In this document: piece by piece, positions 16,694 through 45,500 of the stretch | Numbering within the stretch: the stretch's first letter is position 1 | Layout: the number at the start of each line of letters is the position of its first letter | Source of the DNA: an uncultured Solirubrobacterales bacterium | GTDB taxonomy: Bacteria; Actinomycetota; Thermoleophilia; Solirubrobacterales; 70-9 | Assembly: GCA_963787415.1 (NCBI GenBank) | Contig: CAWBCO010000002.1 | Coordinates: 84,962-148,961, forward strand | Direction of reading: 5' to 3' | Length of the DNA stretch: 64,000 bases | Program-made: the position numbers and the translations under genes | Notes under the pieces: model-generated | Told to the model about the DNA's origin: nothing | The model's database searches: none | Seen by the model: the letters and a program-made list of their open reading frames with translations, nothing else

Positions 16694-16789
16694 CTCTCCT
16701 CCTAGACGTTTCAGCTTTGAAATGGGGACACCAAGAAGAGTCCGGCGCCAAATGTTGGCGCCGGACTCAGAGCTGCTTGAGAAGGAAGC

Positions 16790-17098
16790 TCAGGCAACTG
16801 CAACCAACTCGCGGGCGATCACGGAATGCTTGGAGCGCTTCTGAGCTTTGGCCTTGGACGAAGCCCTGGACTCCCACTCTGAGTAGCGAAGCGCCCCGCG
16901 GACCTCGACGCGAGAGCCCTTGCTGAAACCCTCGGCGCTGGTCTCGGCCAGCTGGTCGAAGGCGACGACGTCGATGAAGAGAGGCGGTGTGTTGCCCGGG
17001 CCGTTGACGGCGAGCCGCAGATCACAGACCTTGCGATCTCCTCGCTCGTTCAGCTCGGGGTCCTTGGTCAGCCGACCCTCCAGCTCTACTTTGTTCAT
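16790..17098 (-). CDS. SSB-like OB-fold protein (paralogue 2)
   Basis: Internal Met at 17098 after GGAAGGAAGAG. MNKVELEGRLTKDPELNE ... IDVVAFDQLAETSAEGFSKGSRVEVRGALRYSEWE. Confidence 0.65.
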   Translation of the reverse strand: MNKVELEGRLTKDPELNERGDRKVCDLRLAVNGPGNTPPLFIDVVAFDQLAETSAEGFSKGSRVEVRGALRYSEWESRASSKAKAQKRSKHSVIARELVAVA

Positions 17099-17114
17099 CT
17101 CTTCCTTCCTGTTG

Positions 17115-17127
17115 GCCCCGATGGGGC
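17115..17127 (-). promoter_or_regulatory. short GC hairpin 5' of the RBS of ssb-like paralogue 2
   Basis: GCCCC-GAT-GGGGC lies 17-29 nt upstream of the ATG. Confidence 0.35.
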
Positions 17128-17292
17128 TGGTGTTTGCTTGCGAAGCGACCAAGCCCCGGAAAGGCGAGGCGCGCACCGAAGGGGAAGGGAGCGAAGCGAC
17201 CTTGCGCGGTGAGCCGACGGGGCAAAATGGAGTGCAGCTGCAAACGCCCCCACCGGAGCCGAAGGGGAAGGCGGGGTGAACCCGCTGGATCG

Positions 17293-17475
17293 GCTGCCAG
17301 CTGCGACCGCGCTGACTGCGAGTCCTCAGCGACTTGCGGCCCAGCCAATTGCAACGTCACGGGCGATCACCGAGTGGAGTAGAGCCGGCGCGAACCGGGC
17401 CAGGGTTCGGAGCGGAGCTGGCCGCTGATCGCTAGGGGGTCGCCCTCGGAGAGCTCCTCTGCGAGTCGCATGGCG
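17293..17475. repeat. about 180-bp direct repeat, copy A (partner at 18301-18485)
   Basis: ctgccagctgcgaccgcgctgactgcgagtcctcagcgacttgcgg ... aligns to 18301 onward at roughly 85% identity by eye. Confidence 0.6.
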
Positions 17476-18140
17476 AGCCACCACAGCTCCTGCACCCAAA
17501 CCATTTCGCCAGTCCCGGTGCGCTCAATTGCTTTTTCGACATAGCACCGGCTGCGCGGGGTGCAGCGATAGGTGACCCGGATGATTCGCTGTTCGGCGAC
17601 CGCACGACACCAGGCGTCGAGCAACTCATCGAGTCGGGCGGCACCCTTGGCCGTCAGCACGACCTCGATCGCCTAACCGAGCTCTTCGTCGCGATCGACG
17701 CGAAGCAGATCGGCGCGGTGGAAGCGACCGCTGGAAAGACTGGCAGAGAGCATCCCCTTTCCCTCGGCGCGCTCGCGGGCGAGAATCTGACGCTTGGAGA
17801 GGACCCGGTGGCCGCCTCGCTCGAGCCCGGCGGCCACGTGTGCGACTGTGGATTCGGGGTGGATCGAGGCCAAGGAGATCCGGGCCGGACGGAGTTGGCC
17901 ATGACGGCTGGCGTGAAGGCCAGACTTGGTGGCGATCAGCAGCGGCTCACCCCTGACAAAGAACTGCTGGACGGTGATCAGGCCGTCCTTGTGCAGGCGC
18001 CTCTCGCGGGCGTAGGTGGTGCTACGCGCAGTCGCGGCCCAGCGAGCCACGGCGCTTCGGGGGACGACGCCAAAACGAGCGATGAATCCGAGCACCTCGA
18101 CGTCGCGCTCGCTGATCAGGTCTGTTCGCTTACCACCCAT
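17367..18140 (-). pseudogene. second Replic_Relax copy with an in-frame TAG, its 3' end fused to an SSB-like gene fragment
   Basis: MGGKRTDLISERDVEVLGFIARFGVVPRSAV is parallel to copy 1. TAG at 17673-17675 is in the same frame as the continuation AIEVVLTAKGAARLDELL. The tail AMRLAEELSEGDPLAISGQLRSEPWPGSRRLY matches the middle of the 18320-18631 gene. Confidence 0.65.
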
Positions 18141-18300
18141 CTGTGTCCTAGACGTCCGCCCTCGCAGAAAGGGACACCCGAGCAAGAGCCCGGCGCCGCT
18201 GGCGCCGGGCTCTTGAGGTTGAAAGTGCTGCTTGTCAGGCGGCAAGCTTGATCTCGCTGGCGATCATCGAGTGCCTGGAGCGCTTTTGAGCTTTGATCGA

Positions 18301-18485
18301 TTGCCAGCTGCAGCTGCGCTCACTGCGAGTCCTCAGCGACTTGCGAGCCGGCCAACTGCACATCGCGGGCGATCACCGAGTGGATGTAGAGCCGCCGCGA
18401 TCCGGGCCAACGTTCAGAGCGAAGGTGGCCGCTGATCGCCACCGAGTCGCCCTCGGAGAGCTCCTCCGCGAGTCGTACGGCGAGG
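18301..18485. repeat. about 180-bp direct repeat, copy B
   Basis: Covers the 3' half of the SSB-like gene 18320-18631. Confidence 0.6.
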
Positions 18486-18631
18486 ACGTTGAACGCGGTC
18501 ACCTTGACGTAGACCTTGTACTTGTCGCGTCGACCATGGACCACGAGCCAGAACTCACAGACATCGCGGCCAGGTACTCCCATCAGGGATGGTTCGCTAT
18601 CGAGGTGACCGAAGAAACTGACGTTGTTCAT
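18320..18631 (-). CDS. divergent SSB-like OB-fold protein (paralogue 3)
   Basis: MNNVSFFGHLDSEPSL ... KVTAFNVLAVRLAEELSEGDSVAISGHLRSERW. It has the same hairpin-RBS leader as the other two ssb genes. Confidence 0.5.
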   Translation of the reverse strand: MNNVSFFGHLDSEPSLMGVPGRDVCEFWLVVHGRRDKYKVYVKVTAFNVLAVRLAEELSEGDSVAISGHLRSERWPGSRRLYIHSVIARDVQLAGSQVAEDSQ

Positions 18632-18646
18632 CGCAATCTCCTTTCC

Positions 18647-18661
18647 AGGCCCGTCGGGCCT
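18647..18661 (-). promoter_or_regulatory. short GC hairpin 5' of the RBS of ssb-like paralogue 3
   Basis: AGGCCC-GTC-GGGCCT next to GGAAAGGAG and the ATG. Confidence 0.35.
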
Positions 18662-18825
18662 GCTGTTCGCTTGCGAGCAACCGCGCCCCGCCAGGGGCCA
18701 AATCGAGCGAGCAGCGAAGAAGCAGGCCCGCGGAATTCAACATTTGGAAGCAGGTCTGCATGCATCCGGGCGACGGCGGAGCCCCTCAAGGGCTCCGCCG
18801 TCATCCCGATTGTCCGCAGTTTCAA

Positions 18826-19161
18826 TCACCGACTCCACATCGCATCAAGCAGCCCGGCCACTTCCTCGCTCTCGGTGCTGTCGAGCACAGTCCCGATCGC
18901 CGCAGGGCTCATTGGGCACTGATCCAGGCATTCGGCCTGCTGGAGGTAGTCCCTGATGAAAGCCTCCAATATCACCGAGTCCTGCCAACCGCGGTCTACG
19001 TAATAGGCGGGGCCCTCGCCGCTCGCCGGTGTGTCGAGGAGCTCGGTGCCACCGCTCGCGCGGCGACCAATCACAACGCGCTCGCCGGCGGAGATTCGGT
19101 AGCGGGCGATTTCTGTGCCCTCGCGCTTGAGGCTGTCGATGTCGAGCTGTACTTCGGTCAT
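18826..19161 (-). CDS. hypothetical protein
   Basis: 111-aa protein-like ORF with no recognisable motif. Confidence 0.35.
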   Translation of the reverse strand: MTEVQLDIDSLKREGTEIARYRISAGERVVIGRRASGGTELLDTPASGEGPAYYVDRGWQDSVILEAFIRDYLQQAECLDQCPMSPAAIGTVLDSTESEEVAGLLDAMWSR

Positions 19162-19536
19162 GTTGAACCTCCCGTCTCGGTTGATCGAACGGGCGAGCGC
19201 ATCGCACCGGACAGCTGAGGGCGGAACCCCGAGCCGCAGGCGAGGGGCCGAAGGAGGCCCTTTTAGGGCCTTGAAGTACTCAGCGCCGGTGCCAGGATGG
19301 GTGAGCCTCGATCCACCGAGGAGGAAGAGCCGCAGAGAAAGCAGTCCGGCTTAAGACCCCAAGCCGAATGCACCTGGAACAGCCGACCCCGCCGCCCTGC
19401 GCCGGCTCGTCTCGACGACCAACTCGGTCGAGCACCTAAACCGCCGGATCCGCAAGAGGATCAAGACACGGGCCCACAACCGGAGGGTTGGCCGATGACC
19501 GCCGTCAAGACCTGCGACGCCCGCTGTCTTTCGAAT

Positions 19537-24630: not shown

Positions 24631-25439
24631 CTACCCATCGACGTCTTGTATGAGGATGCGGAGGGCGGCACGGCCCTCGCTAATGCAGCGGCTGACCTTT
24701 CGATGACTCCAGGCCTGGCGATCCATGACCTCGGCGTAGGAGTAGCCGAGGCCGAAGAAGCAGTAAGCCGTGCGCTCGTCGGGCTTGAGGCTGGCAAGGC
24801 CGGCGAAGAAAACTCTCACCTCCTCCCCACGCTCGGCGACTTCGACGGGATCGGGTCGCTCGGAGATCTTGTCCGACAGCGCCGCATCGGAGTCATAAAG
24901 CCGTGCCAAGGCTGAGCTCACCGCGGGCCTGGTACCGGTGATCCCGCTTGCCGATCGCCCAGGCTCGGTGCTTAATCGGCGAGCATGAGCCAGGCGATGG
25001 CATGCTCATCGGAATGTCCGTTGTAGTAGCGAAGAAACTGGACGCAACCCTCCTGGAGGGCATCCTCGGCGGCGTCGCGACTTGGAGCGTTCCGTAGGGC
25101 CTGGGCCCGGAGAAGACCTTGCTTGGCGGCCAGCAACCGCTCGAGGATTCGCGCTCGGGAATTGGCTGCGTCTCGGTTTCGTGTCGGCCGGGTCGCCACG
25201 CGGCCGTCGTTGCACGCGGAGCGTGCGATCCTGCGGGCGCTGGCGAAATCGGCCGCAGCTCGGGACCCAGGCGGGAGCCAGACGGTCTTCGTATGGTCTG
25301 CTGCACAGAGGCCCGGGGCATCATCGAAGTGCGCGGGAGGAACTCGAGAACCGGCATATGGGTCTGCTATTCGAACACGGCCTTGAGCCCCGGCCGGCAC
25401 GAGGTAACCATGCGTCGTCGCGGGGCCATGGCCAGCCAT
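24631..25439 (-). pseudogene. sigma-like gene (paralogue of 1-429) split over three frames
   Basis: The region-2 part SRDAAEDALQEGCVQFLRYY ... AIAWLMLAD stops at 24972. KHRAWAIGKRDHRYQ continues in a second frame. The region-4 part GLGYSYAEVMDRQAWSHRKVSRCISEGRAALRIL is in a third frame. Confidence 0.6.
24985..25300. repeat. about 320-bp direct repeat, copy A (partner at 26125-26445)
   Basis: The 5' part of the sigma-like gene is duplicated. Copy A has ttaatcggcg where copy B has ttgacggcg. Confidence 0.6.
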
Positions 25440-25614
25440 AGACTCGTTTAGCCTTGACTCGCAAGCGAGATGTCAAGCAGTTCCGCCAGGCTTGGGAGAT
25501 CGGACTGACCGTCGCGGAACGCCACGCGGCCAGCGAGGCCCTGCACGCGGACAAGGAAGCCTCTGGCAAGGCCGAGCACCTGAGCTATGGAGATCTGCTG
25601 GCTTGGCTGCGACA

Positions 25615-26037
25615 ATGGAGACAACGCTGATGACCACAGCCGCAGCCTTAGACGCTTCGCCCGTCAAGGTTCTGCGCTCGATGCGCGGGTCGATCGTCGA
25701 CGCCCGCCTCGCCTATCCGGGGGTGCTCCATGTGGACGTGCGCGACTCGGCGGGCGAGCTTTGGCGCCTCATCACCCAGGATGCCGAGTGGACTCCCTCC
25801 GATCCAGCGCAGCTAATCGGCCGCTCGGTCGAGAATGCCCAAATCGATGAGGAGAGTGGAACGCTTCACTGCAGGCTCTCAGACGGTTCTCGATTTGATG
25901 TTGTGCCGGCCCAACAAGAGGCCGACGACGATCCGCCGAATTGGGAGCTGATCGCACCAGACGGCCTGGTCTTGGAGTTCGGGCCAGGAATGCGTTGGCG
26001 CATCGGCAGCGCCGACGCGCGCGTGTCTTCGCCGTAA
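25615..26037 (+). CDS. hypothetical protein
   Basis: METTLMTTAAALD ... is protein-like, with no recognised domain. Confidence 0.4.
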   Translation: METTLMTTAAALDASPVKVLRSMRGSIVDARLAYPGVLHVDVRDSAGELWRLITQDAEWTPSDPAQLIGRSVENAQIDEESGTLHCRLSDGSRFDVVPAQQEADDDPPNWELIAPDGLVLEFGPGMRWRIGSADARVSSP

Positions 26038-26040
26038 GCA

Positions 26041-26286
26041 TTAATCATGCCGCTCGGCAAGGCTGGGCTCGCCACATGCCTGGCGACGGTGACCGCGCTT
26101 GCCGATCGCCCAACCTCGGTGCTTGACGGCGAGCATCAACCAGGCGATGGCATGGTCATCGGAATGTCCGTTGTAGTAGCGGAGAAACTGGACGCAACCC
26201 TCCTGGAGGGCATCCTCGGCGGCGTCGCGACTTGGAGCGTTCCGTAGGGCCTGGGCCCGGAGAAGACCTTGCTTGGCGGCCAGCAA
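26041..26286 (-). pseudogene. truncated sigma-like gene fragment (region 2 only)
   Basis: MLAAKQGLLRAQALRNAPSRDAAEDALQEGCVQFLRYYNGHSDDHAIAWLMLAVKHRGWAIGKR, then an abrupt end. No region 4. Confidence 0.6.
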
Positions 26287-26445
26287 CCGCTCGAAGGATT
26301 CGCGCTCGGGAATCGGCTGCGTCTCGGTTTCGTATCGGCCGGGACGTCATGCGGCCGTCGCCGCACGCGTAGCGTGCGATCCTGCGGCCGCTGGCGACTC
26401 GGCCGCAGCAAGGGACTCAGGCGGGAGTCAGACCGCCCTTCGTAT
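26125..26445. repeat. about 320-bp direct repeat, copy B
   Basis: See 24985-25300. Confidence 0.6.
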
Positions 26446-26494: not shown

Positions 26495-26779
26495 TCAGAC
26501 ACGGGTGAGGAGATCGAAGCGGAGAGCTGCGCGAGTCGGTTGGACGTAGTGGCCGTCGTGGCACAGGAGGCCGGCGTCGACCAGTTCGGTGACCGCGTTG
26601 ACAATCGCCTCTCGCTGGACGGCATCCTCGGGGTTGGCGGAGAGCACGCGGGTGAGCTCGCCCTGGGAGAGTCGGGTCGGGTCAATAGATAGGACGAATG
26701 TGAGCGCATTGCGTTGGAGCCTGGCTTCCTCCCCACTCGGCGGCGGTGGATCGCGGCGCGGGTTACGGTGCCCCTGCAT
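26495..26779 (-). CDS. small winged-helix-like protein
   Basis: Internal Met at 26779. LSQGELTRVLSANPEDAVQREAIVNAVTELVDAGLL is wHTH-like. It is preceded by the shared GGGGCGAA..CCGCCCC motif. Confidence 0.4.
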   Translation of the reverse strand: MQGHRNPRRDPPPPSGEEARLQRNALTFVLSIDPTRLSQGELTRVLSANPEDAVQREAIVNAVTELVDAGLLCHDGHYVQPTRAALRFDLLTRV

Positions 26780-26856
26780 AGGAGCTTGACCTCCTGCATC
26801 GGCCCCGGGTGCGTGTGCGCGCCGCGCAGGGCATTTTCTCGTTCGCTGCCTATAGA

Positions 26857-26881
26857 GCGGCGGGGAGAAAGTTCGCCCCCC
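26857..26881 (-). promoter_or_regulatory. shared upstream GC hairpin motif, occurrence 1 (most divergent)
   Basis: gcggcggggagaaagttcgcccccc, about 80 nt upstream of the start at 26779. Confidence 0.35.
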
Positions 26882-26924
26882 GAAACGCCCCACCCGGAGG
26901 CGATGGACCGAGCCTGTCGCTCTA

Positions 26925-27392
26925 TTAAGGGAGAGCCGCAGGTGGGGCGAGCGGGTCGAGCTGAGCCGCCGCCTCATCGATACCCTCGACGGCCAGCTCC
27001 CAGCCGGCCGTCTGGGCCAGATCCTGGAGGCGCTGCAGGTGGTCATAGAGGAGGTGGCGGCGGAGGTAGACCAGAGCTTCGGCGGGTTGAGCGACGCGGC
27101 GCGAGTCAAGCTCGGCCTCCTGCGCGCCGATCACGGCGCTCTCGGCGACGAGCACCTCCTCGCGCCCCTCGCCAGCCAGGTAGGCACTGCGCAGCTCGAG
27201 CCCCAGCTCGGCCGAGCAGCTGGTCAGGACCAAGACCGCAGCGCCGGCGTCGCATTGAAGCGTCTCGCCGCCGACCGGGCGGCCGTCGACCAAAAACCGA
27301 AGCGATAGCGGAGTCCGTGCCACCGACCTACCGTAGCGTTCTCGGAGGCGGGGAGTGCCTCGCCCGAGCTCAATCGAGGTCGGCATAACCAA
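26925..27392 (-). CDS. hypothetical protein
   Basis: 155 aa. Its start abuts the stop of the upstream ORF. Confidence 0.4.
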   Translation of the reverse strand: MVMPTSIELGRGTPRLRERYGRSVARTPLSLRFLVDGRPVGGETLQCDAGAAVLVLTSCSAELGLELRSAYLAGEGREEVLVAESAVIGAQEAELDSRRVAQPAEALVYLRRHLLYDHLQRLQDLAQTAGWELAVEGIDEAAAQLDPLAPPAALP

Positions 27393-27704
27393 TCATTCGG
27401 CATCAAGAGCAATCCATTCGATCTCGCCGTTGACGAGCGGGACCTCCATCGGGAAACGCGCGGCCCAGACGCTGCGCTCCCAGCGGGTGAAGCCGCCGTA
27501 GCGGGCGGCCCGCACCCGCTCCTCGTTACTCATTCGAGCAAGGCGCGCCAAGAAAGCATCGCGGCGATCGACGGGACTGAGGAAGTCCTCGCCGACCGAA
27601 GTCTCCTCGCTGAGCGGACGCTCAGCTGTTTTATTCGTCCTCGGATGGTCGCTCACCATTGCATCGTCGACCTCGCCACCGTTTGAAGCTCTGGGACGGT
27701 TCAT
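27393..27704 (-). CDS. hypothetical protein
   Basis: 103 aa with SNEERVRAARYGGFTRWERSVWAARFPMEVPLVNGEIEWI. A 4-nt overlap with the upstream gene. Confidence 0.4.
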   Translation of the reverse strand: MNRPRASNGGEVDDAMVSDHPRTNKTAERPLSEETSVGEDFLSPVDRRDAFLARLARMSNEERVRAARYGGFTRWERSVWAARFPMEVPLVNGEIEWIALDAE

Positions 27705-28129
27705 GGCGATGAGATCGAGCGGCTTTTATCGGCTCGGTATCTGCTCGTAAGCGCATTGGCCTTGCCGACCTGGGCCAGGGCGGAGAGGGTGAACTGGATT
27801 GGGCTCTCACCCTCACGCTGCAGCAAGGTCAAAGACAAGCGGTGCAAGTTGGGGCCGGTGCCCGGATCGACGGCGAGAAGCGGCCGGGGGTCGGTTCTCG
27901 ACAGCGAGCAGACGACGAGAGCGGCGTCTAGATGGCCGGGTTCGACAATGCCGGCAGAACGAGCATTGTCGAGCAGGGACCTCAACTCGTCGGCATCGCT
28001 TTGGGGACCGATTGTCGAGATTGGGCCTGAGTCGCTGGCCAGCTCAACCGCGGCCTTGACCCGATTGAGCTTGAACCGCCTTCGCGGTTTCGCCTGCGCG
28101 CTACGGCGGTCTGCGGATCGCGATTGCAT
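27701..28129 (-). CDS. paralogue of the zinc-ribbon family lacking the zinc ribbon
   Basis: SDADELRSLLDNA ... DPRPLLAVDPGTGPNLHRLSLTLLQREGESPIQFTLSALAQVGKANALTSRYRAD aligns with residues of the 28880-29569 product. Confidence 0.5.
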   Translation of the reverse strand: MQSRSADRRSAQAKPRRRFKLNRVKAAVELASDSGPISTIGPQSDADELRSLLDNARSAGIVEPGHLDAALVVCSLSRTDPRPLLAVDPGTGPNLHRLSLTLLQREGESPIQFTLSALAQVGKANALTSRYRADKSRSISSP

Positions 28130-28255
28130 CTGGTCCTCCTCTCTGCTGGTCCCCCCGCCCGATGCGGGAGCCGGTGCGACCGATCCGCACGCTCGGCGTG
28201 CGAAAGTCGGACGCCGGCGATTCGCAAATCGGACGGGTTGATCGGCGAGTTGAGA

Positions 28256-28280
28256 GCGGGGGGGGCGGAAATTCGCCCCC
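28256..28280 (-). promoter_or_regulatory. shared upstream GC hairpin motif, occurrence 2
   Basis: gcggggggggcggaaattcgccccc, about 130 nt upstream of the start at 28129. Confidence 0.45.
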
Positions 28281-28299
28281 TCATCAGAGAGGGGCGGGG

Positions 28300-28599
28300 T
28301 TACCCTGGGCGCGAAAGAATCTCGTGGCCTCCGACGCGAAGCCAGACAACATGGGTCTCGCCGGGCCTGCGCTCGCTGGCGTAGCGAAACGTGGCGCGGC
28401 CATCGCCTGAGTAGGACATCTCCCAGAGGTCCTTGGTGCCCTGCACGCGCTTGATGCGCAGAGAGCGTGGCGGCTCATTTCCAGCCCTGAGGGCATCCAC
28501 CAGTTTCGCGACGGCCTTGCGGAATGCCCGCCGTTGCTCGCAAGGAAGGCGTGTGAACTCGCGGGCGAAGCCCGCCGACAGCTCGTAAGTTGGGCTCAC
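28300..28599 (-). CDS. RelE/ParE-superfamily toxin-like protein
   Basis: 99 aa with F..L...QRRAFRKAV ... PRSLRIKRVQGTKDLWEMSYSGDGRATFRY ... VVWLRVGGHEIL. A 4-nt overlap with the upstream small ORF. Confidence 0.55.
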   Translation of the reverse strand: MSPTYELSAGFAREFTRLPCEQRRAFRKAVAKLVDALRAGNEPPRSLRIKRVQGTKDLWEMSYSGDGRATFRYASERRPGETHVVWLRVGGHEILSRPG

Positions 28600-28883
28600 C
28601 GCTGAGGCTGTTGCGAGGCGGCCGCGTCGAGACGATCAAGCGCGTCGAGAAACTCCTCACCGCTGAGCGGCCGCTCGACCTCTTCCGCGATCACCTCATC
28701 GGCGGACTCCGGAGCAAGCACGAGCGAACCGTCGCGGCGGTGCTCCAAGACCTTGTAGCGACCGAGGCGTGATTGCGAAGCGTCGGCCGCGGTGATGTCA
28801 ACAACGAGCATCTTCATTCCCTCCAGTGTCTCAGGCACGACAGGCAGCGGCAAGTCGAGCATCTCTACGTGGCATCTGGTCAC
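28596..28883 (-). CDS. putative antitoxin
   Basis: Small acidic ORF coupled to the RelE-like gene. The start is uncertain (28883, 28862 or 28817). It overlaps the stop of the zinc-ribbon gene. Confidence 0.4.
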   Translation of the reverse strand: MTRCHVEMLDLPLPVVPETLEGMKMLVVDITAADASQSRLGRYKVLEHRRDGSLVLAPESADEVIAEEVERPLSGEEFLDALDRLDAAASQQPQR

Positions 28884-29569
28884 CGTGCCAGGGCAGCGAG
28901 TCCCTCGGCCGTTTCCAGCTCGTCCGCGTTGTCGACCAGCTCGCGGCCGCTCTCCTGGAGCTCTGAGGCAACAACTTCACAGATGTCGGCGCCATTCCAC
29001 GGTCCCGGCCGGTTCATGTAGGAGGCGATGCGGTCGAGTCGAGCGCTGTCGGCCTGGTAGCTGCTGGCAAGCGCGTTGGCCTGCTCGACTATCTGGTCGA
29101 GGACGCGAACGGTGAAGTCGACAGGGTTCTCGCCGTTGTGCTGCTGGAGCTTCAGCGACCTGCCGAGAAGGGTCGGGCCGCTACTTGGATTGACAGCGAG
29201 GATCGGCTCGGGATCGCTCAGCGAGAGCGGATAGATGGCGAGGCAGACATCGGGGCGAGCACGCCGGATGACACGAGCAAAGAGTGCGTCGTCGACCAGA
29301 GCATTGAGCCTATCGGCGTCGCTGTGGGGGCTGACCGGTGAAACCGCGCCCTCCAGATTGCGCAAGTCAAAGGCGGCGCGGCGGCGATCGAGAGTGAACA
29401 ATTCCTGCGGAGGAGCAACCCCGCGAAGATCCCGCTCGCCTTCGGCGACCGTGATCAGGGCCCCCTCTCGGGCGAACTCCGTGCCGCAGTTGTCGCACTC
29501 GATGCGACTCCCGGGCTCGGTCAGAGTGTCGGCCTCGGCGCTGGAGCACTCAGGGCATCGCAATTTCAT
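28880..29569 (-). CDS. zinc-ribbon protein of unknown function (full-length family member)
   Basis: MKLRCPECSSAEADTLTEPGSRIECDNCGTEF (CxxC-N17-CxxC) followed by an about 190-aa uncharacterised domain. Confidence 0.6.
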   Translation of the reverse strand: MKLRCPECSSAEADTLTEPGSRIECDNCGTEFAREGALITVAEGERDLRGVAPPQELFTLDRRRAAFDLRNLEGAVSPVSPHSDADRLNALVDDALFARVIRRARPDVCLAIYPLSLSDPEPILAVNPSSGPTLLGRSLKLQQHNGENPVDFTVRVLDQIVEQANALASSYQADSARLDRIASYMNRPGPWNGADICEVVASELQESGRELVDNADELETAEGLAALAR

Positions 29570-29721
29570 TTCTTCCTCCCCCTTCTTGGCTCCGCCCAGT
29601 GCGGGAGCCGTCGCACCCGATTGGCGCGCTCAGCGTGCGAGGATCGGGGTGGCGGTGACCCGCGAATGAGCGAGAGTTGATCGGCATGGAGGTGTGAGAG
29701 CTGGGGGCGGGAATTCGCCCC
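29007..29721. repeat. about 715-bp direct repeat, copy A (partner at 31725-32435)
   Basis: Most of the zinc-ribbon gene plus its leader. Over 90% identity to copy B by eye. Confidence 0.8.
29700..29721 (-). promoter_or_regulatory. shared upstream GC hairpin motif, occurrence 3
   Basis: gctgggggcgggaattcgcccc, about 130 nt upstream of the start at 29569. Confidence 0.45.
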
Positions 29722-30002
29722 TCGATGCATTAGCTCGCTTTGTTGAGCGGCCCCTCAGGTGCGAGGGGAATTTAAAACCCCGCAGGCACCCCCTTCGCAA
29801 GTCGCACAACAAGCGATCTGAAGAGGACAAGCTAGGTCTGTGCCATGCTGGCGTGCCTAGGATGTGGATATGGCCAGCGAGCGCGGCCCGCTTGATTCGC
29901 TCCGATACCGGCATCGGAGCTTCTCGATCCCTATTCTCCTATCTCAGTACATATCGGGCAGGCGGAAATCCCGTCTGATCCAGCTTTTACCTTCGTGTCT
30001 AG

Positions 30003-31370
30003 ATGAGAGGCCATCGCAGCAGTCGAATCCTTGTCGCGGGCAAGGATGCCCGCACCGACGCCATCGCCGCCGCTTTGGCAGCTAGCCCTCTCACAGCCGA
30101 ACTCTACGCACTGTCAGAACTCCAAAACCCGCCTGGGCTTCTGCGGGCCTGCAAGGAATTACGGCTTGGGTCGCTCACTGATCTGGACTGGTTGGAGTCC
30201 GCGACCCGCGAGATCGCTCCCGACCTTGTCGTCGTCGGCCCTGAGGAGCCGCTCGCCGCTGGCTACGTCGACCGCCTTGATGAGATGGGCATTGCCGCCT
30301 TCGGACCTTCTAGCGAACTCGCCGAAATCGAGTCGAGCAAGACCTGGGCGCGTGAACTCTTGGAGAAATACGACATTGCTGGGAACCCGGACCACCGCGC
30401 CTTCGCAAGTGCTGAGTCGCTGCGAGAGTACATGGAGGAACTCGGTGATTTCGTCGTCAAGCCCGATGGCCTTACTGCAGGCAAGGGAGTCAAGGTCTTC
30501 GGCGAGCACCTGCACTCGATCGACGAGGCTCTCGCCTATGCGCTCGATGTGCTCCAGACCCACCCGCGGGTACTGATCGAGGAGCGACTCGAGGGCGAGG
30601 AGTTCAGCCTGCAGACGATCACCGACGGCGCCGCAGTAATCCACTGCCCGCTCGTGCAGGATCACAAGCGTGCCTTCGAGGGCGATCAGGGGCCGAACAC
30701 CGGCGGCATGGGGTCCTACTCATGCGCGGACTTCTCCTTGCCGTTCCTCAGCGACGCCGATGTGCTCCAGGCGCACACGATCTCCGAAAAGGTGGTCGCG
30801 GCCCTGGCTTCTGAGACCGGCAGGCCCTACAAGGGTGTTCTCTACGGCGGCTTCATCGCAACTTCTGACGGCGTTCGCCTGATCGAGTACAACGCTCGTT
30901 TCGGTGATCCCGAGGCGATGAATGTCCTCCCGATTCTCGACGCCGACTTTGCCGAGATCTGCTTCGCTGTCGCCGCAGGCGAGCTTGGCAAAGTTGACTG
31001 GTCCTTCCAGCCGCGAGCCACCGTTTGTAAGTACGTGGTCCCCGAGGCCTACCCAGAGAAGTCCGAGCCGACCAAGCTCGGAATCACCCCGACTGAGCTC
31101 GATCAGTTTGGTGCCACCTGGTATTGGGCGGCCTGCGAGCAGCACGGCGAGGACATCTTCATGACCTCCTCACGGACCGGTGCCTTCGTCGGCAGCGGGA
31201 ACTCTCTGCAAAAGGCCGAGGCCGCCGCCGAGCAGGCAGCCCAAGAGCTAGGACGCGGCCGCTCGATCCGCTACCGCGCTGACATAGGCACTGAACCGCT
31301 TATTCGTAAGCGGATCGAGCATATGCAGAAACTGCGCGGTTCGCAGTTTCGCCCGCACGCGTCTTTCTAG
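30003..31370 (+). CDS. phosphoribosylamine-glycine ligase (PurD)-like ATP-grasp enzyme, divergent and orphan
   Basis: PurD-type motifs are present: FVVKPDGLTAGKGV, EERLEGEEFSLQ, DHKRAFEGDQGPNTGGMGSYS, IEYNARFGDPEAMNVLPIL. The N-terminal loop reads GKDARTDA instead of the canonical GGREHA. No other pur genes are nearby. Confidence 0.7.
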   Translation: MRGHRSSRILVAGKDARTDAIAAALAASPLTAELYALSELQNPPGLLRACKELRLGSLTDLDWLESATREIAPDLVVVGPEEPLAAGYVDRLDEMGIAAFGPSSELAEIESSKTWARELLEKYDIAGNPDHRAFASAESLREYMEELGDFVVKPDGLTAGKGVKVFGEHLHSIDEALAYALDVLQTHPRVLIEERLEGEEFSLQTITDGAAVIHCPLVQDHKRAFEGDQGPNTGGMGSYSCADFSLPFLSDADVLQAHTISEKVVAALASETGRPYKGVLYGGFIATSDGVRLIEYNARFGDPEAMNVLPILDADFAEICFAVAAGELGKVDWSFQPRATVCKYVVPEAYPEKSEPTKLGITPTELDQFGATWYWAACEQHGEDIFMTSSRTGAFVGSGNSLQKAEAAAEQAAQELGRGRSIRYRADIGTEPLIRKRIEHMQKLRGSQFRPHASF

Positions 31371-31699
31371 TTGCGCCGTTCGCTGAGGTAGCGCTCGGCG
31401 CAGATGCTGCAGTTCAGCTCGTATCGCATCTGCTCGTCGACCTTGCGTTGAGGCTCCTTACAAGCCCACCAGACGAGCTTGGGATTGTCGCTCTCATCGT
31501 GCAGCTGGGGGTGGGTGCAGATGTGATGTAGGGCGATCCTTCCACACGGAAGGCGAAGCTCCCGGCAGTTGGGCACATTCGCCCCCGGTTCGGGCCCGTA
31601 GTAGGCGACGGTCTCGACCTCGACCTCGCCAGTATCAATCGCCTCGATCGTTCGGTGACAGCCGGGGCACTCCGCCGCTTCGCTCACGGACCCAAGCAT
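31367..31699 (-). CDS. Cys-rich small protein (putative zinc-binding)
   Basis: 110 aa with CPGC near the N-terminus, CSIC near the C-terminus and four further Cys. Convergent with the PurD-like gene, with a 4-nt overlap. Confidence 0.45.
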   Translation of the reverse strand: MLGSVSEAAECPGCHRTIEAIDTGEVEVETVAYYGPEPGANVPNCRELRLPCGRIALHHICTHPQLHDESDNPKLVWWACKEPQRKVDEQMRYELNCSICAERYLSERRN

Positions 31700-31705
31700 T
31701 GCTTG

Positions 31706-32286
31706 TCAGTCAATCGCTGGCTGCGGCCGATTCATGTAGGAGGCGATGCGGTCGAGGCGGGCGCTGTCGGCGTGGTAGCTGCCGGCAAGCGCGTTGGCCT
31801 GCTCGACTATCTGGTCGAGGACGCGAACGGTGAAGTCGACAGGGTTCTCGCCGTTGTGCTGTCGGAGCTTCAGCGAGCAGCCGAGCAGGGTCGGGCCGCT
31901 ACTTGGATTGACGGCAAGGATCGGCTCGGGATCGCTCAGCGAGAGCGGATAGATGGCGAGGCAGACATCGGGGCGAGCACGCCGGATGACACGAGCGAAG
32001 AGTGCGTCATCGACCAGAGCATTGAGCTCATCGGCGTCGCCGTGGGGGTTGACCGGTGAGACCGCGCCCTCCAGATTGCGCAAGTCAAAGGCGGCGCGGA
32101 GGCGCTCGAGCGTGAACAATCCTGCGGAGAGGCAACGCGGCGAAGGTCTCGCTCGCTTTCGGCGACCGTGATCAGGGCCTCCTCTCGGGCGAACTCGGCG
32201 CCGCAGTTGTCGCACTCGATGCGACTCCCAAGCTCGGTCAGACTGTCGACCTCAGTGCTGGAGCACTCAGGACATCGCAATTTCAT
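31706..32286 (-). pseudogene. third zinc-ribbon family copy, frameshifted and 3'-truncated
   Basis: MKLRCPECSSTEVDSLTELGSRIECDNCGAEF. Relative to copy 2 one T is missing (gaacaattcctgcgg versus gaacaatcctgcgg near 32120). The rest of the domain continues in the 31706-32215 frame and ends early at MNRPQPAID. Confidence 0.7.
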
Positions 32287-32435
32287 TTCTTCCTCCCCTT
32301 TGTGGCTCCGCCCAGTGCGGGAGCCGTCGCTGCCGATTGGCACGCTCTGCGTGCGAGGATCGGGGCGGCGGCGACCCGTAAGGGCGGGAGTTGGTCTGCG
32401 TGGAGGTGTGAGCGTTGGGGGGCGGGAATTCGCCC
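31725..32435. repeat. about 711-bp direct repeat, copy B
   Basis: See 29007-29721. Confidence 0.8.
32412..32435 (-). promoter_or_regulatory. shared upstream GC hairpin motif, occurrence 4
   Basis: gcgttggggggcgggaattcgcccc. Confidence 0.45.
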
Positions 32436-32610
32436 CGGGGCCGACTGTCGATTGCATCGACCCCCTGAGATCAGAGCATGAAGGGGTCCAATCAGGGTTG
32501 GGCCGGTTGGTGCCCCGTCGCTCCGATTATCTGGAGCTCTGCCAGAAACGAGCGCACGGCAAGGCCTCTCGGTGGCAGAAGTAATCGCGCTCTTACTGGC
32601 AGAGCGAGCG

Positions 32611-33143
32611 CTAATCCTCCGGAGGTGTCTCCCAAAGGGTCGTCGAAACCAGATCGAGACGCGAGGTGGGTAGCAAGCGCTCGAGAAATACCGCCACGAC
32701 TTCACCGGCGCCGGTTGCCGACGGAGCTCGCACCCCCTCACGGCCGAGGTGGTGGGCTGCCTCTCCGATCTGCTGACAGGCACTGGCTTTGGTCGAGTAA
32801 AGCTGACCAACGGTCAGCTCTAACGCGTCAAGTGCCAAAGGATCGGTCAGATCTAGGCACCCAGCTTCAGCTTGTACTCAAGTAAGTGACGCGGCATGAA
32901 GTCGATCGGTTCTCGGCCGGCCTGGCGAGCGAGACGATGGAACTCGGCCACCGCGACATCAACGGAAAGGCCAAGGTAGAGGGTTGCGAAGCTGTTCGGT
33001 GGATTCCAGCGTCCGCCGTTCGTACGCGCCCCAGCGCCGGGCTGCGAATAGCTCCACTCGACTGCCTGATGGCGGAATCCACGGCCCGAAATCGCGATCG
33101 GGGGCAGCCCATCAATAACCGTGGTTATGTGAGCTGGCGCCAC
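32611..33143 (-). pseudogene. RES-domain toxin, frameshifted near 32850
   Basis: N-part GRGFRHQAV ... GGRWNPPNSFATLYLGLSVDVAVAEF stops at 32853. The C-part LDLTDPLALDALELTVGQLY ... QQIGEAAHHLGREGVRAPSATGAGEVVAVF continues in another frame. Confidence 0.65.
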
Positions 33144-33163: not shown

Positions 33164-33502
33164 TTAGACGAAGACGCCCTCGGCCAGCGCCTCAACCGCG
33201 CCGAGAACCCGGCGGTACTCCCCCCTTGTTAGAAGATCGATGGGCTTGTTGTGATCGAGCATCTGATTCGGAGCTAGGAGCCAATCGTGAGCGGCCTGCG
33301 GCTGTAGAACATTCGATAAGCGGTCGAACACGTAGATGATCTCAAGCAGGCGTTCACGAGCCTCGGCACGCGGAGCCGTCTCTCGGTGCAGCCACCGAGA
33401 GACCGTTCTCGGCGTGGTTTCAAGAACACGCGCAAAGTCTGAGTAGTCAAAGCCGACTCCCTCGCTAGCAACCTCAAGCCTCTCGACAAGATCCTGCAAC
33501 AT
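33164..33502 (-). CDS. Xre/MbcA/ParS-type antitoxin (DUF2384-like) of RES toxins
   Basis: FARVLETTPRTVSRWL ... AAHDWLLAPNQMLDHNKPIDLLTRGEYRRVLGAVEALAEGVF is the typical DUF2384 C-terminal motif. Confidence 0.7.
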   Translation of the reverse strand: MLQDLVERLEVASEGVGFDYSDFARVLETTPRTVSRWLHRETAPRAEARERLLEIIYVFDRLSNVLQPQAAHDWLLAPNQMLDHNKPIDLLTRGEYRRVLGAVEALAEGVFV

Positions 33503-35291: not shown

Positions 35292-36377
35292 GTGAAGGTT
35301 CGACGGGAAACCCGGCGAACAGATCGGTGGTATAACGAGCACATGGGTTCCCGGCTTCCCAGGGGAGTGGTCCCTAGACGTTGGCCTTCCCCCGCTATGG
35401 CTCTCGCGATGGTTGCGTTGCTCGTCGCCTTGGGCGGCACCGGCTATGCGGCTTCTGCCGGAAACTCACCCGCAGCCAAGCACTCTCCCCTGATGCTGAA
35501 GCTCGGACACCGGGGACCACGCGGCTTGCCGGGAGCTCCAGGGCCGCGCGGTCCCTCCGGGCCGCAGGGTGTTCGGGGGTCACTGGGCGTTCCCGGAGCA
35601 GCCGGACCAACTGGAGGCCAGGGTCCGCAAGGGGTTCCAGGTGACGCTCGCGCATACGCTTACGTGGAACCTCCTTGCAACGGATGTGGAGAACTTCCCG
35701 CCAACTTCACGGCGCTGCAGGCAGCCCAAAGCAAGAATGTCGCCCTTGCGGGGCATAGCAATGCCTACGGGACCGACGTCCAGGGCACTGCCCCCGGCAC
35801 GTGGTGCTTCATTCTGGAAGGCGGGGTAGAACCGGGCAGCGCCACGGTTGTAACCAGCGCCGTACACACGGAAGACGAGCGGTCCTCCGACGTAAGCGCG
35901 GAGTGGGTTCCGCATGCCCCTGACTGTTCGTCGAGCCAGATCGAGATAAGAACCTTTGCCACCGCGATTAAGGAAGGCAACATAGTCACGGAACCCGCCT
36001 ACGCCGTTTCGTTCTCCTTCGTGGTCTTGTCTGCTGCTCAGCCACCGTCCGGCGGCGGGACGCCACCCAGCTTCGAAGGGCTGCAGAGCGCGTTCGCCTG
36101 CTCCCCAATCCCGCGGGCGTTGCCGTACGGACTCACCTGGAAGGCTGCCACGGACAAGGTCACGCCGAGTTCGCAGATCGTCTACGACATCTACCTTTCT
36201 CACACTAGCGGCGGCGAGGACTTCTCCCACCCAACCTGGACGACCGCACCAGGCGTCACCAGCTTCGAAACTCCGCCCCTGAATGAACCCTCTTACTTCG
36301 TAGTGCGAGCGCGAGACCAGGCAGGCAACGAGGACCAGAATACGGTTGAGCGCGTAGGCGAAGATCCCTGCGAATAG
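35292..36377 (+). CDS. secreted collagen-like (G-X-Y repeat) protein
   Basis: Signal anchor [22 protein letters not shown], then [43 protein letters not shown], then a globular C-terminal region with an FN3-like end. Confidence 0.7.
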
Positions 36378-42534: not shown

Positions 42535-45500
42535 TCATCGGCTTCGACGGTGGTGCCTCGGACTGCCATGGTGGCGGTTCGTCTTGCGATGCTTTTTCAG
42601 ACACTTACCGTGCCTTCTGAGGAAATCGTGCTTGCATTTGGACTGAGCCTGTGATGGAGCGTTACCGCTGTTGCCCGGATTGACGTGGACATTGGGCTGC
42701 GGAGGCGCCGGGGTGCCGGGTCCATGACACTCATCAGATGCCTGGCACGGCACCGGTGGCGGCGTGTATGCAAAGCCGCCAAATTCGCGGGCGTCATAGA
42801 CCTTGACGACCGGCCCGCTCTGGTCCTGAGGGGCAAGGGAGTCGCGGGTGAAGAAATAAACGTCGGTCCCAGTCGCACTCGCGGAGAGTAGGCTCGAATC
42901 GAAGGCGCTAGCGCCGGAGGAGATCAGCTGGACGGTGCCATTCTCCCACTCATATACATCCTGTTTGTTGTCGGTGTCGCGAAGCACAAGAGCGTCACCT
43001 GAGTTGAAAAAGACGCGGCCATCGTTGGTCAGGCTGAGGCCATTTGAAGCCAAAGTGGCGGGACCGCTGGGGGCCACACCGGTCGATTTGCACGAGACGC
43101 AATCCAGCTTCCCGCTCAGCGCTCCATACCGATAGACCTCCGAATGACCGGTATTTTCGTATTCGTCTAGCTTCTGGGTGGTGTCAAAGGCGGCGTATTC
43201 CCCGCTCGGCGTCACCTGGAAGTCGGCGGTGTGCCGGGTTCCCGCTTCCTTGACGCCGTCGACCACGGTCGGATCGTTGGGCGCCAGGGTGGCGACGAAC
43301 TGAGGAGCAGAGCCGGGGCGAACCACGTAGAGGTTGGGCTGATTGGCGGTGCCGTTTGAGGTACCGTCGAGGAGCTCTGGGGAGAGGAAGTAAACCGTGC
43401 CGTCTTCAGAGGCCACTCCCCCACCCCCGCCGATCGCAACCACGCCGCAGTTGGGGCTCGCTTCGAGGCTATTCCAATGAGCGCCTGCTTCATTTGCAAC
43501 CGGATCGCAGGCATTGGAGTTGCCGGCACCTTCGGTGCCGGTTGAGAGCAGCTGCAGCTTGAGGTTGCCTTCGGGGCTGACTTCTGCCTGATAGAGGTCG
43601 GCGCTTTCATCGGTGTCTTGGGCCAGCAGTTTGTCCTTGGTCGTGAAGAAGACCTTGGAGCCGTCTTCGCTCATCCCGTCATAAAGGACGCCAGAGGTGG
43701 ATCCGGGAGCGAGGTCGATCGTTTTGGAGGAATCACCGATGTCCATGTAGGGATGCCAGTAGACGTTGTGATCGGCGTCTTCAGAGACCTTCTGGGCGAC
43801 GATGATGCGCGAGCCGTCCTTGGAGATGTCCAGCTCTGCGATCCCGTTGGGATCACCTGGGGAGTGGCAGCTGCCCGATCCCTGCAGGCAGGGGAGGTTT
43901 TCTCCTTGAGGGGTCTTTGAGACGACGTGGGTCTGCCCCGTGGAGAGATCTCGGTCATAGATCGAAACGTCGCCATTGTTATTGGCGTCTGGCTCAAACT
44001 GGGAGACCGAGCCAAAGATGAAGTGGGAGCCGTCGGCAGAGAAGTACTTGGCGATGTGGCCGTCTGGCTTCGCGCTGATGGGCGGTTGGATCGAGCCGGC
44101 CATTCCCTGCACCAGGGAGCCGCTTGGCAGGTGCAGGGGGATGCCGGTTTCTATTCCTTCGCCAAAGCAGGGGGCGCAGAGCGCTTCTCCAGAGAAGGCG
44201 AAGGTTTCCAGGTTGGGGGTGGCTTCGGCCACGGTTGAGGAGAAGGGGTCAGAGGCGGGATCGATGTTTGAGGGGATGCCGACGTATTCGGTCGACCAGC
44301 CTTCGGCCGTACGGGTGGCGACGTAGGGGTCGACGCCATCGTTGGTCGGATGACCGGTACCCGAGATGCCACCGTCGTGGACTCCGTAGAGAATGCGCGG
44401 CGGGCTTTCGGCTTGGGAGAATCCACCAAATGGGGCTTCACCAGGCACGAGATCAGACTCAACATCGTAGCCGCCGGCATTGGGCGAGGAGACGCGCTCA
44501 TAGGCCCGACAGTCGAGCAGTCCCGCGGCCCCGGTCTGCTGGCGCTGGTGGGCGTTGGGGCAGGGATCATGGCCCAGTTCGACAAACGGGAAGGTGGTGA
44601 AGGTCTCGTCTGGACCAAACGTCGGAGTCAGTTTGTTCGTATTAACTGCCGCAACGCGCCAATGGTAGGTCGTCCCGGGGGTGAGGTTTTCCAAATCACC
44701 GGTTACGCTCTCAAACGTCGTGCCACGTCCCATCGTCGTCTTCGGAGTTGACAGACATTGGCTGATCGCACAGTTATTGGAACCGTATTCAAAATAATAT
44801 TCCGTGTACTTTGCACCAGGTTCATTGAAGTTGGTCGCGTTGCTTTCACCCGGATAAATTTCGGCGGCGACAGTAGCCACATCAGTATGAACTTCTGCTG
44901 TAGCGATCTTGCGGAATTCTGGCGGCGCGGGGGGTGTCTTGAAAGATTTTGCCGGCCCGACGCTCGTGCCGAGACTGTTGGAAGCAACGATCGAGACACT
45001 GTATTCCGCATCGGGTTCAAGACCCGTCACCGGTAGGCTGACTTTTGTCGGACCGCTCGGAACACCCGCGTCCGCCCCTCCGACGGGGGCTTCGAGAGTG
45101 GGCCCGCTTCCACATGTCTCGAGTTCGGGGGGCGTTGATTCAGACCACTGACACGAGTAATAGCTATATGAGAAGTAGTAGTGAGTATCGAGTGGTTCGG
45201 CATTGAACGAACCGTGGAACGTTGCCGTAGTCCCGTCGAGTTCAGTCGGTTCTTCGGTTTCCAGTTCGCCGACCGCACCCGTGGTCGTAAAAGTCTGATC
45301 GCTGCCATAAGTGGTTCCGATCCCGTTGGTGGCGACGAATCGGTAGTGGTAGGCCGTTTCTGTGTGCAGGCCGGTGAGCGTCGCTGCCTCCGCCGTCGGG
45401 GTTGGACCACTCGGCGACCCAGCATCTTCGCCTGGGGGAGTGGCTGTCGTCTGTCCGTAGCTTTCTGATTCGCCCCATTCGAAATAGTAATCGGTGTCTT

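Follow-up and report, generated by a model that had tools for sequence, protein, structure and literature searches.

What does the structured leader do that precedes three related genes in the DNA of an uncultured Solirubrobacterales bacterium? The genes lie in a stretch of 64,000 nucleotides (nt) from contig CAWBCO010000002.1 of assembly GCA_963787415.1 (positions 84,962 to 148,961), to which we refer throughout as the window, with position 1 as its first letter. An earlier note on this DNA described an uncharacterised zinc-ribbon protein family in three copies, each behind the same leader, and took the leader for a family-specific cis element (operator, attenuator or RNA structure) of an undescribed mobile-element or defence-related module. 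The three paralogues are present, all on the minus strand, and the leader is indeed common to them: it is a previously undescribed cis element, and it is the counterpart of the plasmid sequences that precede 'establishment' genes. Our preferred reading, which we hold tentatively, is that it constitutes a regulatory cassette in two parts, proper to a family of conjugative elements of Solirubrobacterales, and that it acts as folded mRNA. The paralogues, their leaders (W1 to W3) and two incomplete copies are as follows; the bit scores of the hairpins are those of the covariance model R1 described below.

27701..28129, minus strand: paralogue 1, 142 aa, core domain alone (open reading frame, alignment)
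28249..28281, minus strand: upstream module of W1, palindrome GGGGCGAATTTCCGCCCC at 28279-28262 and CTCTCA box at 28256-28251
28138..28231, minus strand: hairpin leader W1 (62.5 bits; fold −62.1 kcal/mol, z −4.5)
28880..29569, minus strand: paralogue 2, full length, 229 aa (open reading frame, 30 homologues, alignment, AlphaFold2 model)
29690..29723, minus strand: upstream module of W2, palindrome at 29721-29704 and CTCTCA box at 29700-29695
29575..29669, minus strand: hairpin leader W2 (59.3 bits; fold −41.5 kcal/mol, z −0.9)
31706..32286, minus strand: paralogue 3, recent copy of paralogue 2 (1-nt indel near 32120, C-terminus replaced)
32404..32436, minus strand: upstream module of W3, palindrome at 32436-32419 and CGCTCA box at 32414-32409
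32291..32385, minus strand: hairpin leader W3, ATG at 32286 (58.3 bits; fold −48.2 kcal/mol, z −3.3)
26852..26881, minus strand: weaker upstream module alone, with no long hairpin, GGGGCGAACTTTCTCCCC and CTCTAT, before a 94-aa gene
26313..26408, minus strand: degenerate fourth hairpin copy (34.1 bits, E about 1e-3)

The whole leader measures about 155 nt and consists of two modules, a palindrome with its box followed by a long imperfect hairpin of about 95-115 nt. This arrangement describes it better than the three small hairpins that had been proposed. Both of the further small hairpins named in the earlier note can be found (GCACGC-N3-GCGTGC in W1 and W3, with one A.C mismatch, GCGCGC, in W2; CCGC-N5-GCGG before the ribosome-binding site of every window copy), but the former is the tip of the long hairpin and the latter an alternative pairing of its 3' arm. 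In the window copies the stretch between the box and the Shine-Dalgarno sequence folds as a single hairpin, and one long hairpin is the minimum-free-energy fold of most copies overall. In single-sequence folds of most copies the basal stem is formed by a 5' segment A (GCGGGAGCCGG) paired with a segment B (CCGGCUCCCGC), plus an extension; from this base inwards there follow a C-A/C-A internal loop, the helix CCCCGA/UCGGGG, a second internal loop and the tip CGCACGC-loop-GCGUGCG. The 3' arm reads GCGTGCGG-TCGGGG-GCACCGGCTCCCGC, with no TAnnnT inside. Segment B has another possible partner in a segment C (GCGGGGCC or GCGGGAGCC), which is a downstream repeat of A, and the 9-mer GCGGGAGCC is found in both direct and inverted orientation. 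In W1 the full hairpin spans approximately 28250-28141, directly followed by the Shine-Dalgarno sequence (28140-28135) and the ATG at 28129; in W2, with its Shine-Dalgarno sequence at 29579-29575 and ATG at 29569, the z-score of the fold is −0.9 as sense RNA and −2.0 as template-strand DNA.

The evidence for the structure comes from its relatives. Forty-two loci were gathered through the zinc-ribbon family, nearly all in metagenome-assembled genomes of Solirubrobacterales or Conexibacteraceae, with one labelled only Actinomycetes. A covariance model of the leader, whose construction the earlier note had proposed, was built (R1; 95 positions, 29 pairs) and returned 101 matches, comprising 79 distinct sense-strand copies in 36 related loci and the window. 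Throughout these 79 copies 82.1% of the cells are paired, as compared with 73.3% when the partners are shuffled (maximum 74.7% in 500 shuffles), and 20 of the 29 pairs display two or more Watson-Crick types, each of them in at least two instances, versus 10.2 after shuffling (maximum 14); if the 3' partners are slid by 1-3 columns, pairing falls to 36-47%. Separate pair counts from a MAFFT alignment and from the model alignment agree, although the latter takes in reverse-strand matches and is fitted to the model. Compensatory changes can be recognized between copies of a single locus (L005: GCGGGGCC/GGCCCCGC versus GCGGGAGCC/GGCTCCCGC), and several divergent copies (for example L004:3826, L023:5913, L030:4556 and window 26313) keep the outer stem with unrelated sequence. 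Non-canonical cells (C.C, G.G) are also numerous in the outer stems; for the B:C alternative 89% of cells are paired, with scarcely any variation, and the tip CGCACGC/GCGTGCG is nearly invariant in sequence, not merely in pairing. The two half-sites of the tip are separated by 3 nt in 48 copies and by 4-8 nt in 29: of the 26 copies with a spacing of at least 5 nt, 25 have added bases that are complementary and keep the loop at 3-4 nt, which argues for a folded single strand and not for a double-stranded DNA (dsDNA) operator that binds a dimer, so that this part of the original proposal is unlikely.

The position of the hairpin with respect to translation is equally regular. All 79 copies share the strand of the gene that they precede, and from the 3' base to the start codon there is a median of 27 nt (interquartile range 26-28, n = 62), with the consensus AAGGAGG in between. 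Many copies start 2-18 nt past the stop codon of an upstream gene: this leaves no room for a separate promoter, and implies co-transcription with the neighbour unless the hairpin itself starts transcription. No sigma-70-type promoter was found on either strand between 26300 and 32600. At some sites (L014 8482-10001, L029 2610, L021 4534 and 2570, L035 2161) the canonical distance leads to an upstream open reading frame (uORF) of 10-14 codons, whose stop overlaps, as ATGCTGA, the ATG of the next gene, which is ComM/YifB or, in L021, DprA; by its layout this uORF looks like a translational relay through which the hairpin keeps its distance from a start codon. In the B:C hairpin one position is a G.U pair in 39 of 66 copies, and in 62 of 79 copies the sense strand gives the more stable hairpin. 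We considered whether B:C could be a general intrinsic terminator, but a U-rich tail follows it in only 3 of the 79 copies.

The genes that the hairpin precedes are not limited to the zinc-ribbon family. Besides the long and ribbon-less forms of that family, hairpin-led genes in the relatives encode a 90-aa family homologous to the product of window 27393-27704, ParB (ParB_N and HTH_ParB domains), DprA (DNA_processg_A), ComM/YifB (ChlI, Mg_chelatase and Mg_chelatase_C, reached through the uORF), a 142-173-aa 'LVLDND' family, and others. A profile of the two-thirds of the leader nearest the ribosome-binding site finds, with nhmmer, several copies per locus, up to 4-5, on the same strand, and blocks of leader sequence also stand upstream of homologues in other genomes whose proteins are 45-65% identical. 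The hairpin is thus element-wide and not private to the zinc-ribbon family: a conserved cis element before mobile-element accessory operons, as had been proposed, was found, but the DprA, ParB, ComM/YifB and 90-aa genes show that the qualification 'family-specific' does not hold. In the window, 3-5 copies occur in 64 kb, all in one accessory region, and full copies precede the three paralogue operons only. The degenerate fourth copy lies just 5' of a truncated ORF for a sigma factor of the extracytoplasmic function (ECF) type (26286-26041), with a duplicate at 25166-25258; partial copies are also seen before the sigma genes of loci L043 and L048. The whole window has no match in Rfam (release 15) at gathering thresholds, and with permissive filters 26700-32600 yields only chance-level matches (E at least 0.4). 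A blastn search (word size 11) with the W2 leader found no match among 72,556 plasmid records; four viral contigs share the pattern of the hairpin tip, none of which fits the covariance model, and these are chance matches.

The upstream module is less widespread, being found 5' of 26 of the 79 hairpin copies at a distance of 5-29 nt (mostly 13-21). In the window, its motif GGGGCGAANTNCCGCCCC occurs exactly three times, on the minus strand in every case (28262-28279, 29704-29721 and 32419-32436) and about 132 nt 5' of an ATG, in agreement with the earlier note; the weaker version reported there before the winged helix-turn-helix-like (wHTH-like) gene at 26779 is likewise present, with 2 mismatches, at 26862-26879. 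With up to 3 mismatches there are 7 matches compared with 2.2 expected, a number reached in 0 of 100 shuffles. The order of the module is a G-run, GnGAAyT, a C-run and, at a fixed distance, CTCTCA(C), with the register of the palindrome stem shifting from copy to copy. Over 27 sites the two G of GnGAAyT (G0, G2) are invariant, and A3 and A4 are conserved in 25 and 24 sites respectively. The weaker module of the window (nhmmer 13.4 bits, E 0.064) has a parallel in the relative L002/L043, where the module also stands alone before the orthologue of the 94-aa wHTH gene (site L002 9140). GnGAAyT resembles the −35 consensus of ECF promoters, GGAACTT (PMC1540707), including the conserved AA, but the CTCTCA box begins 19 nt after the first G, which amounts to a spacer of about 12-13 nt: the −35 fits and the spacing of the box does not, so that an ECF promoter is a candidate only. 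Placed at operon starts, the module is possibly a promoter or an operator, and it might be served by the element's own ECF-like sigma factor. As a separate observation, CGCCCCTC-N6-GAGGGGGCG in window 28249-28300, directly 3' of the stop of the gene at 28300-28599, can form a hairpin in competition with the first-motif palindrome over a G-run common to both, and may be a terminator or an insulator.

The occurrence of the hairpin before genes for DprA, ComM/YifB, ParB, the zinc-ribbon protein and families without a name leads us to view it as defining an 'establishment' regulon, that is, genes that handle incoming single-stranded DNA (ssDNA) or help the element to settle. In the reading that we prefer, the hairpin would act within the mRNA, both as a 5' untranslated region and as an intercistronic structure, where it would be the target of double-strand-specific processing or of a binding protein encoded by the element. 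After cleavage or opening, the local B:C hairpin could form just 5' of the Shine-Dalgarno sequence, and might then set the stability and translation of each cistron. The timing with which establishment and anti-defence genes are expressed is known for very few systems, namely Frpo of F-like plasmids and the establishment gene regulatory sequences EGeRS1 and EGeRS2 of Bacillus plasmids; here a compact element, backed by covariation, marks such a regulon in the almost unstudied Solirubrobacterales of soil. It can be used as a search handle for establishment genes, including a family with a confidently predicted fold and no known relative, and it accompanies an unusual cargo, the elements' own DprA and ComM, which are normally tied to natural transformation. 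With 95 nt and two mutually exclusive pairings, it is also small enough for direct tests of function as RNA or as ssDNA.

Several observations weigh against a role in mRNA. On the sense strand the long stem holds 98 A.C cells versus 61 G.U, which is atypical for RNA; along a spanning tree of the copies, changes between Watson-Crick pairs and A.C number 104, compared with 48 that involve G.U; and the template strand folds better by about 4 kcal/mol in 55 of 72 copies with RNA parameters, and also in 61 of 71 copies with DNA parameters. In the internal loop, column pair 27-94 reads C.A (37), U-A (8) or C-G (10) on the sense strand, which correspond to G.T, A-T and G-C on the template strand. The Shine-Dalgarno sequence is sequestered in neither conformer, so that no simple translational switch is visible; the spacer of 12-13 nt in the upstream module, against the 16-17 nt usual for ECF promoters, leaves a promoter there doubtful; and, since all loci were collected via the zinc-ribbon family, the set of genes is biased towards its neighbours. 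The strand asymmetries are in keeping with a possible, if doubtful, alternative: that the hairpin works on the transferred single DNA strand in the recipient, as a single-strand promoter or priming site analogous to Frpo/ssi or to sso, and causes the establishment genes to be expressed or made double-stranded early, the transferred strand being the template of genes and hairpins. The gene set indeed resembles that of a leading region, with SSB and ParB in addition to the ssDNA handlers DprA and ComM (PMC11541004), the copies are co-oriented with the transfer genes and with the TrwC relaxase of L049, and the dsDNA has no sigma-70 promoter. However, the strand test based on wobble pairs and fold energies is in conflict with itself, as the long stem favours the template and B:C the sense strand, and it is confounded by mutation bias: in unpaired columns A/G differences outnumber C/T (196 versus 118, from copies that are not independent), an excess that may explain a good part of the asymmetry. 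In addition, inspection of the stem reveals neither the −35 and −10 hexamers nor the UP element that define Frpo (PMC11541004), the leader matches nothing in the 72,556 plasmids, and one copy lies downstream of the relaxase gene. The 27-nt spacing, the coupling through the uORF and the sense-favoured B:C hairpin fit RNA better, and the analogous EGeRS1 of pLS20 has been judged not to be an ssDNA promoter (PMC8708921). In a more specific form, for which we have as much doubt, the hairpin would serve on the incoming strand as a 'single-strand start signal', promoter-less or non-sigma-70 in kind, from which transcription, priming or recombination of the relaxase type would begin. If so, it would turn on a private toolkit of DprA, ComM, SSB and ParB, together with proteins of no assigned function, before the element becomes double-stranded, and would represent a new mechanistic class beside Frpo and EGeRS1.

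The remaining explanations appear improbable to different degrees. It is unlikely that the palindromes are dsDNA operators of a repressor or activator encoded by the element (for example the 94-aa wHTH protein), with zygotic induction like that of EGeRS2/Reg576 in p576, where the concept is established (PMC8708921); the near-invariance of the tip sequence, the direct and inverted repetition of GCGGGAGCC and the presence of wHTH and sigma genes in the same regulon would suit such operators, which are nonetheless difficult to reconcile with half-sites 3-8 nt apart and complementary fillers, with the compensatory changes between copies in L005, with divergent copies that pair through unrelated sequence, and with the lack of a sigma-70 promoter there to repress. 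We consider it quite improbable that the hairpins are folded-DNA recombination sites, attC-like or recognised by a relaxase, that serve to swap cassettes, their placement at start codons being a by-product. The same hairpin, in the same orientation, flanks each of several unrelated genes, gene order varies between loci (as for the 103/90-aa gene), the stem is biased towards the template strand, and L049 has a MOB_F relaxase, of a kind known to act on hairpins; but no integron integrase was seen among those ORFs that were scanned, which are a part of the total, inspection of the hairpin base finds no GTTRRRY/RYYYAAC cores, sequence conservation is high, which is not so for attC sites, and the tight 27-nt spacing and the conserved Shine-Dalgarno sequence are part of the unit. 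Finally, a recent duplication, or a selfish repeat akin to repetitive extragenic palindromes or miniature inverted-repeat transposable elements, with no regulatory role, is very improbable and largely refuted: W2 and W3 are 90-95% identical, genes included, and the C.C and G.G cells of the outer stems are many, but the leader is conserved in 36 loci before proteins of 45-65% identity and before unrelated families, covariation exceeds that of the shuffles, the strand is always that of the gene at a fixed distance from the start codon, and only 3-5 copies are present in 64 kb, in a single accessory region.

Similar arrangements have been described elsewhere. The early genes of phage T7 are separated by RNase III processing hairpins, which resemble the present ones in being imperfect, with internal loops, before successive early genes and directly 5' of the ribosome-binding site; the length of at least two helical turns between cistrons is also found here (29 model pairs, two internal loops), but the sequences are unrelated, the competing local hairpin B:C is peculiar to our case, and cleavage is only proposed. 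The start-associated motifs SAS and ESAS of Cluster K mycobacteriophages, whose function is likewise unknown, also combine a conserved motif near the ribosome-binding site with inverted repeats, before a subset of unrelated genes of an actinobacterial mobile element; they differ in sequence and size, and belong to phages rather than to a conjugative element. Integron attC sites are recognized by R''/R' cores (RYYYAAC ... GTTRRRY), variable sequence and a nearby IntI, a combination that was not found here, as regards IntI among the ORFs scanned.

Among described concepts, the one nearest to the leader comes from the pLS20 plasmid family and is the establishment gene regulatory sequence. In pLS20 itself, EGeRS1 is a conserved, GC-rich and repeat-rich sequence of 420-750 bp located directly 5' of the ribosome-binding sites of five establishment operons; it contains no sigma-A promoter, its mechanism is unknown, and its authors judged that it is not an ssDNA promoter (PMC8708921). 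The leader shares with it the repetition of a conserved, GC-rich sequence with many inverted repeats just upstream of the ribosome-binding sites of variable establishment operons, and the lack of an internal promoter of sigma-A type. EGeRS1, however, is multi-branched and comes from Firmicutes, whereas ours is a single hairpin of about 95-115 nt from Actinomycetota of the Thermoleophilia type, which is also found between cistrons, and there is no sequence similarity. In EGeRS2 of p576 a strong sigma-A promoter is overlapped by a repressor operator, which is not the case here. What defines single-strand promoters of the Frpo type is a stem with −35, −10 and UP elements (PMC11541004). The Frpo/ssi sites of the leading regions of F and ColIb-P9, as far as described there (PMC11541004; Masai and Arai 1997 as cited there), are long imperfect hairpins like the present one, which also precedes ssb-type and early genes of a conjugative element, all co-oriented, and has a stem slightly better on the template strand; on the other hand TTGACA, TATAAT and UP are missing from our stem, there is no sequence similarity, and the spacing to the Shine-Dalgarno sequence and start codon is fixed here.

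The protein family that first drew attention to the leader is itself without known relatives. Paralogue 2 is full length, as the earlier note had stated, and comprises a zinc ribbon, an alpha/beta core (approximately residues 56-172) and a C-terminal helical module; the ribbon reads CPEC-N16-CDNC, with 16 residues between the cysteine pairs instead of the 17 given there. Paralogue 1, which is 42% identical to paralogue 2, aligns to the core only and has no CxxC pairs, no C-terminal module and, as had been noted, no ribbon. Paralogue 3 matches paralogue 2 in two DNA blocks of 95% and 90% identity at offsets of 2718 and 2717 nt: the difference corresponds to a 1-nt indel and hence to a frameshift, bearing out its description as a frameshifted recent copy. 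Its final 42 or so codons are replaced, and it reads as pieces of 116 aa and 169 aa; since the relatives are genomes assembled from long reads, an error of assembly might account for the frameshift. The duplication of W2 and W3 is recent, whereas the W1 leader is only about 70% identical to them. Neither of the two outcomes that the earlier note had set against its own proposal, membership of a known family or similarity due to duplication alone, was found, the leader being kept before distant homologues.

Thirty homologues are 35-93% identical to the zinc-ribbon protein; none is functionally named, the few with a name being called 'hypothetical protein'. A scan of 1.84 billion representatives returned 157 clusters. 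The family is modular, with ribbon, core and C-terminal helices each found separately. Family members and operon partners match nothing in Pfam, NCBIfam, PADLOC and PHROGs beyond zinc-ribbon profiles below cut-off (18.6 versus 30.3 bits and 17.4 versus 20.9 bits for Zn_ribbon_4 / MJ0042), even though both CxxC pairs are plainly present; the likeness to MJ0042/Zn_ribbon_4 is in the N-terminal CxxC-N16-CxxC unit of about 33 residues, and the difference is that in this family the ribbon is optional and the core domain has no known relative. The AlphaFold2 model of the full-length paralogue 2 has a predicted local distance difference test (pLDDT) score of 78.8, with the core above 90; for a natural ribbon-less member, modelled on the family alignment, pLDDT is 88.1 and the predicted template modelling score (pTM) 0.80. 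The topology of this member is beta-alpha, then alpha and four strands, a 37-residue helix and a final helix. Foldseek searches with the full-length model, as had been proposed, and with the core alone gave no match in PDB or BFVD at E 0.001 or better (best PDB match E 0.93, probability 0.07; best BFVD match E 0.036, probability 0.21, TM-score 0.21), so that the statement that the large C-terminal part has no recognisable domain stands. A double-stranded RNA-binding domain or a Rad52/ERF-like fold recurred among the top matches, which are non-significant and can be taken as leads only. A sequence profile search of PDB with the family gave nothing below E 0.4, tblastn with the zinc-ribbon protein found no match in the database of 72,556 plasmid records, and exact-sequence look-ups of the window protein and of protein P0011 returned no record. 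The database protein P0067 (303 aa) joins a DprA domain (1-160) and the family's core domain (165-297) in one chain, an arrangement that hints at a functional link between DprA and the zinc-ribbon family. The company of DprA, ComM, SSB and ParB suggests for this family a role with incoming DNA.

The three operons, and the region next to them, include the following further genes.

27393..27704, minus strand: 103-aa gene, with hairpin-led homologues (90 aa) in relatives, often directly upstream of the zinc-ribbon gene
26925..27392, minus strand: 155-aa gene, last in the W1 operon, no family match
28300..28883, minus strand: two small overlapping genes, 95 aa and 99 aa, 3' of paralogue 2, no family match
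31367..31699, minus strand: 110-aa Cys-rich gene 3' of paralogue 3
26495..26779, minus strand: 94-aa wHTH-like gene, which is also kept in relatives (L043 13243-13527, 61% identical)

In the window the 103/90-aa gene comes after the family gene, but in other loci it comes before it. An initial guess that 28300-28599 encodes a RelE/ParE toxin was unsupported by the protein family libraries. Directly upstream of leader W3, at 32853-33143 and 33164-33502, are a RES-domain toxin fragment, with only the N-terminal half of the domain, and an Xre/ParS-type antitoxin. A complete PurD gene (GARS_N, GARS_A, GARS_C; 30003-31370, plus strand) lies between two of the accessory operons, convergent with 31367-31699, an odd location for a gene of purine biosynthesis.

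The gene content of the window is that of a conjugative element with type IV secretion, in a Solirubrobacterales-like genome and on the minus strand. The genes that identify it are listed below.

1100-2176, minus strand: SLT transglycosylase
5114-7594, minus strand: VirB4-like AAA_10 protein
7591-8250, minus strand: TcpE
8661-9536, minus strand: TcpC
11840-12193, minus strand: SSB
12281-13978, minus strand: coupling protein
16790-17176, minus strand: SSB
18320-18631, minus strand: SSB
24652-26322: ECF-like sigma gene, in pieces

The secretion genes, coupling protein, SSBs and transglycosylase are all on one strand, and the G+C content of the window is 59-69%. Wider views of three relatives show the same neighbourhood, with a Sigma70_r2 gene, SSBs, a TraG/TrwB coupling protein and ParB, all sharing the strand of the family gene. 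Neighbourhood analysis, another of the checks that had been suggested, thus supports the mobile-element half of the original proposal, in the form of a conjugative element; nothing points to the defence half, for which PADLOC gave no match, and the neighbours include genes of ssDNA processing. In L049 a TrwC-type (MOB_F) relaxase (15734-18958) is encoded on the strand of the hairpin-led genes, with an extra hairpin copy just 3' of it (19097-19198); tblastn with this TrwC found no homologue in the window.

A few other features of these elements deserve mention. Three separate SSB paralogues are carried by the element in the window, and likewise by L043, where a divergent cassette of imuB (IMS) and a dnaE2-type error-prone polymerase (L043 4848-9639, relative L002/L043) adjoins the first hairpin-led gene. 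Two direct repeats of about 375 bp (24907-25283 and 26058-26433, 1150 bp apart) duplicate the degenerate hairpin and the 5' part of the ECF-like sigma gene. One sigma copy is truncated (26322-26053) and the other split between frames (25199-24987, 24852-24652), and the two are separated by an ORF of 181 aa that runs on the opposite strand (25492-26037). Farther along the window, an ORF with collagen-like Gly-X-Y repeats (35292-36377) and two very large ORFs with fn3/NHL/PhoD_N repeats (42535-47265 and 50634-53819), in a stretch of lower G+C content (56-60%), may be cargo or belong to a different island.

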